Source: Escherichia coli
Lineage (GTDB): Bacteria > Pseudomonadota > Gammaproteobacteria > Enterobacterales > Enterobacteriaceae
Assembly: GCF_041886205.1 (NCBI RefSeq)
Contig: NZ_CP169029.1
Length of the DNA: 64,000 bases
Reading direction: 5' to 3' (one strand)
Shown here: positions 30,001-33,000 of the stretch, piece by piece
Numbering within the stretch: position 1 is the stretch's first letter
Layout of the letters: the number at the start of each line of letters is the position of its first letter
Program-made: the position numbers

Positions 30001-33000
30001 GCTGTACCGCGCTGAGCAATGACATCCGTGGTGACGGTACTGTCGTTCAGCGTCAGCGTGCCTTCATTCAGGTTGACGGCTTTCTGGGTGAGTGTGGTGT
30101 TGCTGACAGTGAGTGTGCCACTTCCTGATTTTTCCACGCTGCCGTTACCGGTGAGAGAGCCTCCCTGCAGGAGTGCATCGCCTTCACGGATGGTCAGGGT
30201 ATCGTTGTTCACCGTCTTCCCGGAAAGGGTAAGTATGGCGCCGTTATTCAGCGTGGTGGTGCCCGCCAGTGTGCCGCCCCTGGCGGTGAACAGTCCGCCA
30301 TTTACCGTGGTATCCGTGGCCGTATCACCGGCGTTCAGCGTGAATGAACTGCCTTTTTCCAGCATCAGGGCATCCGCCTGACCACCTCCGATACTGAATG
30401 CCTTTCCGTCGCTCCGGGTACCACTGACAGCGGCACCGGAATCGGCCAGCAGTACACCGCCATTTCCCATGGATACGGTGGTGGCGGTGCCACCGTTGCG
30501 GACATCCAGCGTTCCGCCATCATCCACGCGGGTATTAGTGGCTGTGTGTCCGGTCAGCACATCCAGGCGTCCGCCATTTTCCAGTACGACATTATCAGCT
30601 TTACCCTCCACAACAGAGAATGCTCCCAGGCGGTTTATGCCGGTAACGGTTGCAGCCGTACTGGTAACCAGTGCGCCGCCCTGCTTCAGGGTGACATTCG
30701 TGGCTGTACCACCGGCGTCCACCTGCAGTCTGCCCTTCTGATTAACGGTGGTATTCCCGGCCACACCCCCGTTTTTGACAATCTGCCAGCCGTCACTGTT
30801 TACAACAGTGCCAGACGCCGTACCGCCGTTGTGCACATACTGGTACCCCCCATTCAGCGTGGTATCCAGTGCGTGACCATGTACAGTCTGGTCGCCGCCG
30901 GCATAAACCACAGTGGTATTTGCCGTTCCTTCAGCAGCCACAATCTGACGACCATTTTTATTGATGGTGGTGCGTACGGCATCTCCGTAGACGGTCTGCC
31001 CGGTATCACCATTTTCCGCATCCGGTCCCCCTTCCGCGCCGGTATTCACAACCGTGTCGGTTGCCACTGCGCCGGATTTGATGGCCTGCCAGCCCTTCTC
31101 ATTAATGACGGTACCCGTTGCAATCCCGCCTTCATGTACCCACTGCTCACCGCCGTTCAGAGTGGTGTTCACTGCCTGCCCCTGAAGGCTCTGTCCGCCT
31201 CCGGCACTGATAACCGTGTCTGAAACGCTTCCTCCGGCATTCACTCTCTGAAGACCACCACCGGTGACAGTAGTGTTGTTGGCGATACCGCCATTTTGTA
31301 TCCATTGTCCGCCGGTATTGGCCTCGTTATCCGGCCCATACTCCAGACCGGTACTGATGGTCATTCCGTTGGCCGTACCGAGGACAATCTGGTTGTCATG
31401 ATTTGTCAGTGTTCCGTCGTTCACGGTTTCTCCCGCCTGTACAACCTTGTCAGCAGCCAGTGCCGGGACTGATGTGACAGCAGCAAGAGACAGCGCAACC
31501 GCCACACCGGCGCCTTTTCCCCGTGAGCGGGCCAGTTCGGAGGCCACCACCAGGGTGCCCGTAATGTGATTCCATACCAGCCTGTAGCTGGTGTTCAGAT
31601 GTCGTTTCATCAGCTTTTCCTTACAGAGGGTGAATAAAAAAGCCGGTACCCACAAATGTGGATACCGGCAGGTACAAAACAGCATGGTCAGATAAAGTGG
31701 TTTTTCCCGGACATAAATGCTTCCCCTCTCTCATCCGCCAGAGAAGTATCAGTCCGTTGTGTGCAATTCCGTTCTGCATGATGAAGAGATTCAGCTGCCT
31801 TTTCGCAGACCATTAACCACTATAAACGATCGATAGTAACGATCGATACCTGTTTTATCGATCGTTTTATTCTATTGACAGCAAAGCGGTCACGCAAGAG
31901 AAACAGGAGGGGGATGAGGGGTTTGTGTCATGTTTTCAGTTGGTTAACGCAATGTAATCAGGCATTTCCCCTGGCAGAGTGTTCAGAAGAAAATCCAGTT
32001 CCATACAGCGCGGGCAACAGAGACCACCGAGTCACGGACGGCACGCAGAACCGTGCGTGCAACAGAGGCAATACAGACGCTCTCCGCCGTGTCAAATATC
32101 CGGTCCACCGCACCGGTAAACTGTTCACGGGCCTGAGACCGGACAGATTCCGTGCGCAGCTCGTCCTGCAGGCGGGTCATCAGGGGACTGGCGGCATGGT
32201 CGGGAAGCGCTGTCATGAGCGCACTGACCAGCGTATCCAGTTCCCAGCCGGTGCGGGCCGATACGGCCACAACCGGATGTACGGGCCGGAACAGACGGAA
32301 TACCGCCTCCGTTTTTTCGCGAATATTCTGTGCCTGTGCAGGAGAAGGCTGAATACCGGCCATATCCCATTCATGGCAGGGCTCCGTTTTGTCGGCCTGC
32401 GTCACCACAAACAGTACCCGCTGATGTCCCCGGTGCAGGATGTGTCGCCAGAAATACTCATCCACAGACAGGGCACGGTCATCGGCTTTAATCAGCCACA
32501 GTACCAGGTCAAGTTCAGGCAGAATGTCACGGTACAGGGCCTCATACTCTGCATCCCTGTCCCGGCTCTCGCCCACCCCGGGCAGGTCAGTGATAACCAT
32601 GCTGTGACCGTGGCCACTCAGACGGAAGCGCCGTACTTCCCGGGTGCCGGCGTGAACATCACTGACCGGGGTGACCTCCCCCTGAAACAGTGCATTACAG
32701 AGTGAGGATTTACCGGCCCCGCTTTTACCCATAATGCCAATCACGGGTTCGTGACGGGTGAGTTTGCGCAGATGTTCCAGGATGTGACGGGAAAGTGAGT
32801 AAGGCAGGGAGGAGAGCGGTTTTTCAATTGCCTCAATGGCATCAGACGGATTCATACATGTATTCCCGGTGAAAAAAGACAAAACCCCGCGCACCGGAAA
32901 GGTGGCGGGGGATTCACGGAGATAATATCTGTCTGAAATTGTTTTGAATCGATGGGATTGTTGCGTATTAACATGAAGGAGATCAGGACTTATCCGTTAC

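Follow-up and report, generated by a model that had tools for sequence, protein, structure and literature searches.

The agn43 (flu) locus was analysed within a window of 64,000 nucleotides of Escherichia coli DNA (contig NZ_CP169029.1), where a yeeP-like GTPase gene, an intergenic region, flu, a further ORF and irmA follow one another on the minus strand (Table 1). The intergenic region covers 31611..31982 and includes the leader terminator and the Shine-Dalgarno sequence of flu. It is bounded by the yeeP-like ORF, which ends at 31983 and whose matches to the GTPase family are weak. An earlier note on this DNA had placed the flu regulatory region at 31686-31982. The 31982 end stands, and the other end was misplaced, as 31686 reflects the start of the longest ORF and the gene starts at 31610. 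The flu start codon is M26 of this maximal ORF of 1064 aa. The intact Ag43 of 1039 aa that had been claimed downstream of the GATC sites is indeed encoded at 31610..28491. Its product matches NF033177, the Ag43/Cah equivalog, with 1894.5 bits against a cut-off of 1200, and aligns gap-free with K-12 Flu at 95% identity. Judged from its sequence, the gene downstream of the switch is a bona fide Ag43.

The gene order is the same at the agn43/isrC locus of K-12 (CP4-44 prophage), where a yeeP-like GTPase gene, the regulatory region, flu and yeeR are found in succession. The genes yeeP, yeeR and irmA are intact in the window, whereas they are truncated or deleted in K-12. An agn43-yeeR-irmA operon under OxyR repression has been described in strains CFT073, EC958 and 83972 (PMC4807369). 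The sole minus-strand hairpin resembling a terminator that the terminator scan returned in 25100-28600 lies at 25298..25270, 3' of irmA. No tRNA genes were found when the 64-kb window was searched for them as an island boundary.

Table 1. Features of the agn43 locus, with coordinates in the window.
Feature	Coordinates	Strand	Remarks
yeeP-like GTPase gene	31983..32855	-	ORF directly upstream of the regulatory region; homologous records: GTPase family protein
Putative -35, TTGCGT	31892..31897	-	17 bp upstream of the -10; assigned by homology
-10 hexamer, TAGAAT	31869..31874	-	same in K-12
Predicted OxyR operator	31829..31875	-	ATAGAATAAAACGAT (31875..31861) and ATCGTTACTATCGAT (31843..31829), 17 nt apart
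GATC-I, promoter-proximal	31860..31863	.	right arm of half-site 1; at about +1 of the transcript
GATC-II	31841..31844	.	19 bp from GATC-I; left arm of half-site 2
GATC-III	31828..31831	.	13 bp from GATC-II; right arm of half-site 2
IsrC-like leader RNA, ~228 nt	31636..31863	-	5'-proximal section of the flu 5' UTR; about +1 up to the T-run of the terminator
Intrinsic leader terminator	31636..31669	-	12-bp stem GCCGGTATCCAC/GTGGGTACCGGC followed by T6; terminator scan
Shine-Dalgarno, AAGGA	31618..31622	-	7 nt before the flu ATG; kept in K-12
agn43 (flu) CDS	28491..31610	-	1039 aa, intact; ATG at 31610, stop at 28491
ORF downstream of flu	25854..28376	-	ZYB39 annotation: hypothetical protein; operon in PMC4807369
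irmA, third gene	25323..25778	-	151 aa; PF18673 IrmA, 124 bits; operon in PMC4807369

GATC sites, promoter and predicted OxyR operator

The three GATC sites that had been reported within 36 bp, at 31828, 31841 and 31860, were found at these positions, all of them within aaacgatcgatagtaacgatcgatacctgttttatcgatcg and together spanning 31828..31863. A bare triplet of this density is no rarity and is compatible with chance, with two further clusters of three GATCs in 36 bp elsewhere in the window (2218 and 14045) and 1.26 per 64 kb in mononucleotide shuffles. Unlike the bare triplet, the full pattern CGATC-N13-TCGATCG-N6-TCGATCG, which specifies 19 bases, is beyond chance, occurring once in the window against 0.03 expected even when up to 3 mismatches are allowed. 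The spacing of 19 + 13 bp is the same as in K-12 agn43 and nine other alleles, namely those of O157 (cah), E2348/69, O26, HCM-22C-2, 118C and JJ2434 and three Citrobacter loci, and the bases between the GATCs vary among these E. coli and Citrobacter alleles. Clustered promoter GATCs at 19/13 bp, the arrangement of an agn43-type switch, are present in 8 E. coli alleles.

The putative -35 lies within the block CTCTCTTG, which is kept in K-12, where the hexamer reads TTGTCC. The TAGAAT hexamer is unchanged in 8 alleles from E. coli and at 2 loci from Citrobacter. How far it lies from the K-12 isrC 5' end, as annotated, is consistent with a transcription start at GATC-I. A generic promoter scan gave no sigma-70 match at the agn43 promoter, because the -35 is weak. 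The alignment with the characterised K-12 promoter that the earlier note had called for shows the -35 block, the -10 hexamer, the GATC spacing, both OxyR half-sites, the terminator, the Shine-Dalgarno sequence and the ATG all kept, and this homology supports the Dam/OxyR phase switch claimed there.

We scored the OxyR consensus ATAGnTnnnAnCTAT-N17-ATAGnTnnnAnCTAT, with 20 specified positions, along the window. The predicted operator at 31875..31829 reaches 16/20 and is the best match in this part of the window. Only two loci in the 64 kb, agn43 and F17, score at least 16 with this consensus, where shuffles lead to an expectation of 0.1. The predicted operator spans the -10 hexamer and all three GATCs. 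GATC sites outside it would have spoken against the switch, and none of the three lies outside; the position of the GATCs inside a promoter-overlapping OxyR site, and the N17 register itself, are thereby assigned from the consensus. Across 10 alleles, 19/20 of the specified operator positions are invariant against 11/27 of the unspecified ones (p = 1.4e-4), and 10/11 against 9/25 when the GATC bases are left aside (p = 0.003), although these alleles are related and the statistics overstate their independence. As far as the aligned alleles tell, allelic variation is placed almost wholly at unspecified operator positions. The classical N7 consensus was also tried; it offered several registers at an ambiguous 13-14/20, and in the register where K-12 scores 14/20 the window allele reaches ~10/20. 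The N7 spacing leaves the allelic variation unexplained, and the N17 register was therefore adopted instead. Sequence anatomy, K-12 homology, the match to the consensus and the pattern of conservation were all observed directly.

The agn43 switch lies within a 4.5-kb GATC desert. The nearest further GATC is 3376 bp from the triplet on one side and 1121 bp on the other. The flu coding sequence contains 0 GATC where 8-11 are expected, and does so in five alleles that are 5-23% apart at the nucleotide level, although ~120-143 tetramers in each allele could become GATC through a single substitution; in the upstream GTPase gene there are 0-1 GATC. This depletion may point to purifying selection that removes newly arising GATCs, which, if true, could keep SeqA tracts, processive Dam and MutH nicking off the operator. 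It is doubtful, though conceivable, that the operator GATCs are kept as the sole Dam/SeqA/MutH targets in ~4.5 kb and that this isolation is part of the function of the switch; in that case the race between OxyR and Dam would stay slow and heritable.

The IsrC-like leader RNA

A small RNA had been suggested for this region, and a search with the IsrC model recovered one. The match to Rfam RF00124 IS102 (IsrC) at 31865..31629 on the minus strand scores 74.6 bits where the gathering score is 46 (E 7.3e-12) and spans model positions 1-206 of 206. In K-12, isrC (b4435) is annotated at the homologous place, 2071317-2071511, where it begins at the G of GATC-I and stops in the T-run, 27 nt short of the flu ATG. 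The same position and ends are found in the window at 31863..31636, the ends of the IsrC-like leader being taken from the K-12 annotation. Two hairpins of the model, that of the GATCs at the 5' end and that of the terminator at the 3' end, align with the window leader. The former is given automatically by the two CGATCG palindromes. Compared with the model, the leader carries two large insertions (41 vs 35 nt and 63 vs 35 nt), and the central helix of the model is poorly supported in it. Up to the terminator it measures ~228 nt compared with 195 nt in K-12, 33 nt longer, and the middle is unalignable.

The leader terminator is near-identical in K-12, and its hairpin is present in the MFE and centroid folds of both leaders. 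The window and K-12 folds share only this terminator and the GATC-palindrome hairpin, and the fold of the window leader has a z-score of only -2.0. No antiterminator structure was identified in the MFE and centroid folds of the two leaders. Ribosome-mediated antitermination through a leader peptide was considered and rejected, as the 41- and 52-aa ATG ORFs of the leader lack a Shine-Dalgarno sequence, shift frame in O157 and are absent from K-12; the 52-aa ORF reads through the terminator.

IsrC starts at about the +1 of flu at GATC-I and ends at the leader terminator, and by its position it is therefore best taken as the prematurely terminated flu leader and no separate gene. It was also considered that IsrC might be a small-RNA gene in its own right, acting in trans from a promoter of its own and merely located between yeeP and flu. 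The K-12 annotation as an ncRNA, the Rfam type 'Gene; sRNA' and the strong intrinsic terminator at its end agree with such a gene, which we nevertheless regard as unlikely, though the terminated product may still act in trans. The isrC annotation begins at the G of GATC-I, 6-7 nt past the flu -10 hexamer, and the promoter scan found no second promoter between the isrC start and flu. The middle two thirds of IsrC are unalignable between allele families while both ends are conserved, a pattern more in keeping with cis elements than with a conserved seed acting in trans. PMC5389530 speaks of an isrC-flu transcript and of antitermination, and refers to Wallecha 2014 for antitermination of IsrC controlling flu.

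Nature of the switch

We place a probability of about 93% on an agn43 (flu)-yeeR-irmA operon whose promoter, operator and leader make up this region and act as a classical Dam/OxyR phase-variation switch. The agn43 mechanism has been published (PMC2909390, PMC3764049, PMC13337833, PMC4872104), and at the operator of K-12, the allele from which the published footprint and genetics come, OxyR binds unmethylated but not Dam-methylated DNA (PMC2909390, PMC13337833). OxyR binding, methylation dependence, switching and antitermination are expected in the window by analogy with this work on other alleles. The sigma-70 promoter (-35 at 31897..31892 and -10 at 31874..31869) would start the transcript at about GATC-I. 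A single OxyR tetramer would occupy 31875..31829, with the upstream half-site overlapping the -10 and GATC-I and with GATC-II and GATC-III as the arms of the downstream half-site. When the GATCs are unmethylated, OxyR would bind, block Dam and repress transcription, giving the OFF state; should Dam come first after replication, the methylated GATCs would exclude OxyR and the operon would be transcribed, giving the ON state. Both states would be heritable, with occasional switching. Transcription would cross a leader of ~253 nt, in which a strong intrinsic terminator, 25 nt ahead of the ATG, would yield the IsrC-like RNA (~228 nt), and read-through past this terminator would produce the flu mRNA.

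The same components are combined differently in other Dam-dependent switches. In gtr of Salmonella/P22 and in opvAB, as in agn43, methylated GATCs prevent OxyR from binding, pairs of GATCs at 13 bp form the arms of an OxyR half-site, and the spacing of the half-sites suits reduced OxyR, with function independent of oxidation state. However, gtr is built from three half-sites with four GATCs and offers OxyR two alternative positions, of which one activates and the other represses (PMC2909390), whereas agn43 has a single tetramer site that overlaps the -10 and +1 and serves repression only. The pap family likewise obtains heritable ON and OFF states from competition between Dam and a regulator after replication (PMC2909390, PMC13337833), but its regulator is Lrp with PapI, and its two GATCs lie 102 bp apart in alternative Lrp sites. 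All three are Dam-dependent phase switches, and the GATC-II/III pair at 13 bp resembles a gtr half-site (PMC2909390). It is nonetheless hardly credible that the present region is a Pap-type (Lrp/PapI + Dam) or gtr-type switch with two alternative OxyR sites instead of the single-operator agn43 type: the region has three GATCs and one tetramer-sized OxyR match, the only site with at least 14/20, and no GATC pair 102 bp apart or papI/papB-like gene was found nearby. A gtr-like layout was picked up at F17 in the same window, so the scan is able to detect such layouts. Equally far-fetched is a GATC triplet that arose as a chance cluster or as a by-product of CGATCG palindromes, without a regulatory role. 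Triplets are frequent enough in shuffled windows (~1.3 each) and occur twice elsewhere in this one, but the spacing and flanks of the present GATCs are identical across diverged alleles and genera, their position is fixed relative to the -10 hexamer, the 19-base pattern is unique in the window and the triplet has the only GATCs in 4.5 kb. The homologous K-12 sites have moreover been established by experiment (PMC2909390, PMC13337833, PMC4872104), and this homology effectively refutes the chance reading already.

A switch that has degenerated in the allele family of the window, with OxyR binding poorly and expression being constitutively ON or following very different kinetics, deserves somewhat more weight and is still very improbable. 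The 17-nt spacer between the half-sites reads GATAAAACAGGT in the window and AATATCTATTTT in K-12; it differs at 8/17 positions, the CTAT arm of the N7 register is gone, and the N7 score drops from the 14/20 of K-12 as given above. Against this, the N17 register gives 16/20 in every allele, with all differences at unspecified positions, and agn43 and irmA are strongly repressed by OxyR in UPEC strains (PMC4807369), which may carry an operator of this type. Strict maintenance of the GATCs and of their spacing speaks for ongoing selection on the switch, and the allele type of the window is the commonest. A functional agn43-type operator remains the preferred reading.

Distribution and biological meaning

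Of 5426 complete E. coli genomes, 4137 carry the regulatory region; the median copy number is 2, and the copies total 7371. The leader type of the window (at least 80% of the query covered) is present in 3432/5426 genomes and the K-12 type in 1845/5426. A scan of one genome per species with the 19-base pattern returned 18 matches, with no match in the E. coli representative genome; three are homologues, all from Citrobacter. The remaining matches come from cyanobacteria, Planctomycetota, Actinomycetes and other groups, and probably arose by chance in CGATCG-rich sequence. When plasmids were searched with the agn43 operator, only a dozen matches came back, mostly to records of chromosome or chromosome-fragment size.

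In Citrobacter, the same switch module drives non-Ag43 genes. We further found a gtr-like arrangement of OxyR and GATC sites at 56215..56294, in the F17 fimbrial promoter, which shares it with the Ucl promoter; the layout of the gtr type is seen in this F17 promoter region and not at agn43. A phage search with the F17 regulatory region gave no match.

The agn43 switch is a textbook case of bacterial epigenetic inheritance, through which a clonal E. coli population is a mix of aggregating (Ag43 ON) and non-aggregating (OFF) cells. Such a switch is well known, and the finding is correct but ordinary: the switch in this allele gains an annotation and brings nothing conceptually new, and the side observations on the GATC desert, the Citrobacter cargo and the F17/Ucl layout may outweigh it. 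Exact coordinates are now at hand for methylation calling, and the isrC annotation is best understood as denoting the flu leader. ON cells of strains such as this would co-express YeeR and the cytokine-binding IrmA, and both the Ag43 and the IrmA phenotypes of this strain are expected to be phase-variable.

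Structure of the agn43 switch and its predicted operator

The region upstream of flu (agn43) is a textbook regulatory element, already known, in a common natural allele. The gene lies on the minus strand and the three GATC sites precede it. Its longest ORF spans 31685..28491 (1064 aa), but the gene itself starts with the ATG at 31610, giving a protein of 1039 aa that begins MKRHLNT. It matches the NCBIfam equivalog NF033177 for Ag43/Cah autotransporter adhesins at 1894.5 bits (cut-off 1200), and a gapless alignment along its full 1039 residues gives 95% identity to K-12 Flu. GATC positions, start codon, family score and K-12 identity thus bear out the placement, in the earlier note, of a GATC triplet ahead of a 1039-aa Ag43. 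That note delimited the regulatory interval as 31686..31982; its right end stands, its left end does not, and the interval is 31611..31982. Of 5426 complete E. coli genomes, 4137 carry the region by megablast (median copy number two), and the matches adjoin agn43, cah or Ag43/Cah-family genes, downstream of a GTPase-family gene.

The plus strand at 31825..31865 reads aaacgatcgatagtaacgatcgatacctgttttatcgatcg. Two further GATC triplets within 36 bp occur elsewhere in the window and base shuffles yield 1.26 per 64 kb, so the number of GATCs alone is not beyond chance. Unlike this bare count, the arrangement exceeds chance: the window holds a single CGATC-N13-TCGATCG-N6-TCGATCG, where the expectation is 0.03 even if 3 mismatches are tolerated. 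Window and K-12 (MG1655 and W3110) were compared on the flu strand, and GATC spacing is identical in the two; it was compared ungapped because MAFFT wrongly put a 13-nt gap inside the operator.

Features of the agn43 switch, its operon and related modules
Feature	Position	Strand	Remarks
-35 hexamer in conserved block CTCTCTTG		minus	TTGCGT in window, TTGTCC in K-12; by K-12 homology
Spacer between -35 and -10		minus	17 bp; common to window and K-12
-10 hexamer TAGAAT	31874..31869	minus	common to window and K-12
Predicted OxyR site	31875..31829		predicted half-sites ATAGAATAAAACGAT and ATCGTTACTATCGAT
GATC-I, within AAAACGATC	31860	minus	AAAACGATC common to window and K-12
GATC-II	31841	minus	19 bp past GATC-I, as in K-12
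GATC-III	31828	minus	13 bp further, as in K-12
Rfam IS102 (RF00124) match	31865..31629	minus	full model
Window counterpart of isrC	31863..31636		about 228 nt
Terminator hairpin GCCGGTATCCAC-NTTT-GTGGGTACCGGC, then T6	31669..31636	minus	almost identical in K-12
Shine-Dalgarno AAGGA		minus	common to window and K-12
flu start codon context CTGATGAAACGACATCTGAA		minus	common to window and K-12
flu	31610..28491	minus	intact
yeeR	28376..25854	minus	intact, 840 aa
irmA	25778..25323	minus	intact, 151 aa; PF18673 at 124 bits
Terminator-like hairpin after irmA	25298..25270	minus
F17 site	56215..56294		intergenic
GATCs upstream of F17 operon	56291, 56278, 56228		13 and 50 bp apart on f17A strand
Perfect OxyR half-site ATAGCTTTTATCTAT	56261..56247		between the F17 GATCs
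f17A ATG	56088	minus
Module, Citrobacter braakii	L010 5108..5145
Module, C. amalonaticus	L019 941..978
Module, C. werkmanii	L004 7175..7212
Module, E. coli 120899	L033 1501..1572
Ucl promoter site	L037 1117..1195		GATCs at 1117, 1130, 1179; central half-site ATGGGTGCAATCTAT

In switches of this kind OxyR binds the unmethylated GATCs and represses, Dam methylation abrogates binding, and competition between OxyR and Dam after replication produces heritable ON and OFF states switching at about 10^-2 to 10^-3 per generation (PMC2909390, PMC3764049, PMC13337833, PMC4872104). According to published work on Dam/OxyR switches, it makes no difference whether OxyR is oxidized or reduced. For the window allele the analysis itself establishes anatomy, homology and conservation; OxyR binding, methylation states, switching and antitermination are inferred from published work on other alleles.

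The classical OxyR consensus, ATAGnTnnnAnCTAT-N7-ATAGnTnnnAnCTAT, fits the region in several ambiguous registers of 13-14/20 each and was rejected. With 17 nt between half-sites, a spacing that was described at gtr, the Salmonella/P22 OxyR/Dam switch, as fitting the reduced form of OxyR (PMC2909390), the predicted site reaches 16/20. Over the whole window and both strands, scores of 16 are reached only at the agn43 and F17 promoter sites, and block shuffles give 0.1 such matches. In this register the -10 hexamer lies within half-site 1, whose right arm CGAT holds GATC-I, while the arms ATCG and CGAT of half-site 2 hold GATC-II and GATC-III; all three GATCs therefore fall inside the predicted operator, as the earlier note expected. 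Ten alleles were aligned, comprising seven E. coli alleles and a single one for each of C. braakii, C. amalonaticus and C. werkmanii. Invariant positions make up 19/20 of those specified by the consensus versus 11/27 of the unspecified (Fisher p = 1.4e-4), and without the GATC bases 10/11 versus 9/25 (p = 0.003), both p values being generous for ten related alleles. Window and K-12 operators differ at eight positions of the 17-nt spacer and at two 'n' positions of half-site 2. The conservation pattern is that predicted for a single OxyR tetramer site, with the register assigned by consensus.

GATC scarcity around the switch

Between 28455 and 32981 the switch triplet supplies the only GATCs, with flanking gaps of 3376 and 1121 bp (GATC-free 28456..31827 and 31864..32980). 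The flu coding sequence has none, versus 10.2 ± 2.9 in codon-order shuffles and 8.8 ± 2.3 in synonymous shuffles, and zero was reached by 0/5000 shuffles. Among the 256 tetramers GATC is the second most depleted in flu, only GTAG, which contains TAG, being lower, and none of 29 GAT codons precedes a C-initial codon. GATC is also absent from K-12 flu, O157 cah and the HCM-22C-2 and 118C alleles, which share 77-95% nucleotide identity with the window allele, and each of these alleles holds 119-143 tetramers one substitution short of GATC. The upstream GTPase gene, too, is free of GATC, whereas yeeR, just downstream of flu, carries 20 in 2.5 kb. Other island backbone genes are likewise GATC-poor (gap 20843..25207), so that the scarcity may reflect element-wide avoidance instead of an effect peculiar to the switch. 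The window as a whole has 189 sites versus 254 ± 14 in dinucleotide-preserving shuffles, no shuffle falling below 189, and contains GATC-free stretches of 5.1, 4.4, 3.4 and 3.3 kb.

The leader and the three-gene operon

The IS102 match scores 74.6 bits (E = 7e-12; gathering score 46), in agreement with the small RNA suggested for this region. In MG1655, isrC (b4435; 2071317-2071511) starts at the G of GATC-I, 6-7 nt past the -10 hexamer, and ends at the terminator T-run, 27 nt ahead of the flu ATG. These ends argue that IsrC is the early-terminated flu leader and not a separate gene, a single refinement to an otherwise supported earlier interpretation. The leader is conserved with K-12 only at its two ends, one at the operator and the other at the terminator/Shine-Dalgarno sequence; the middle (31690..31820, set against 940..1080 of the K-12 comparison sequence L003) is unalignable and 33 nt longer. 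No antiterminator was identified in the leader, and leader ORFs showed no conservation. At least three leader families were found in E. coli: the window type in 3432 genomes (≥80% of query covered), the K-12 type in 1000 records (≥99% identity), and an 80-90% relative of the K-12 type in 676 records. Since a K-12-like coding sequence (95% amino acid identity) follows a leader of another family, the locus is a mosaic.

In E. coli PigCaeca_2 (L025 560..660), an Ag43/Cah allele becomes homologous only from a point within the 3' half of the terminator of the leader. Its promoter, all three GATCs and the greater part of the leader have given way to unrelated sequence, and its annotated CDS is extended upstream; this allele may be a naturally switchless copy.

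In UPEC, agn43, yeeR and irmA form a single operon under OxyR repression (PMC4807369), and this operon is complete in the window, unlike in K-12. All three genes are intact, and from 25100 to 28600 the flu strand has no terminator-like hairpin other than the one after irmA; the phase of all three genes is therefore most probably set by the switch at 31829..31875.

Related modules in Citrobacter and at fimbrial promoters

Modules of the agn43 type, with TAGAAT, three GATCs at 19/13 bp and both half-sites, were found in Citrobacter before non-Ag43 genes. The C. braakii and C. amalonaticus modules lie in a CP4-44-like island, downstream of a yeeP-like GTPase gene, and precede a 154-aa signal-peptide protein for which no Pfam family was found; the leader between them is short, at about 100 nt. 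In C. werkmanii the context is different and a small membrane protein gene follows.

The bovine E. coli ZYB39 is 98.1% identical to the window over 18.5 kb, its agn43 and F17 regulatory regions being 100% identical.

At 18/20, the F17 site is the best match to the N17 OxyR consensus anywhere in the window. Its layout is close to that of gtr, where three half-sites go with GATC spacings of 13, 51 and 13 bp (PMC2909390); F17 has three GATCs at 13/50 bp. Four F17 variants (83-100% identity) and one unrelated locus all keep the three GATCs and the central half-site unchanged. A similar module in E. coli 120899, with a GATC pair 13 bp apart, a third GATC and a central TGATAG...CTATC half-site at F17-like spacing, precedes three small hypothetical genes; a relaxase remnant and IS100 lie next to it, and fimbrial genes are absent. 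The promoter of Ucl, an F17 relative, has the same layout. The Ucl study demonstrated OxyR binding and activation and never mentions GATC or Dam methylation, and a literature search combining F17, fimbriae, OxyR and GATC found no paper. The layout shared by F17 and Ucl is a candidate Dam-dependent phase switch of these fimbriae.
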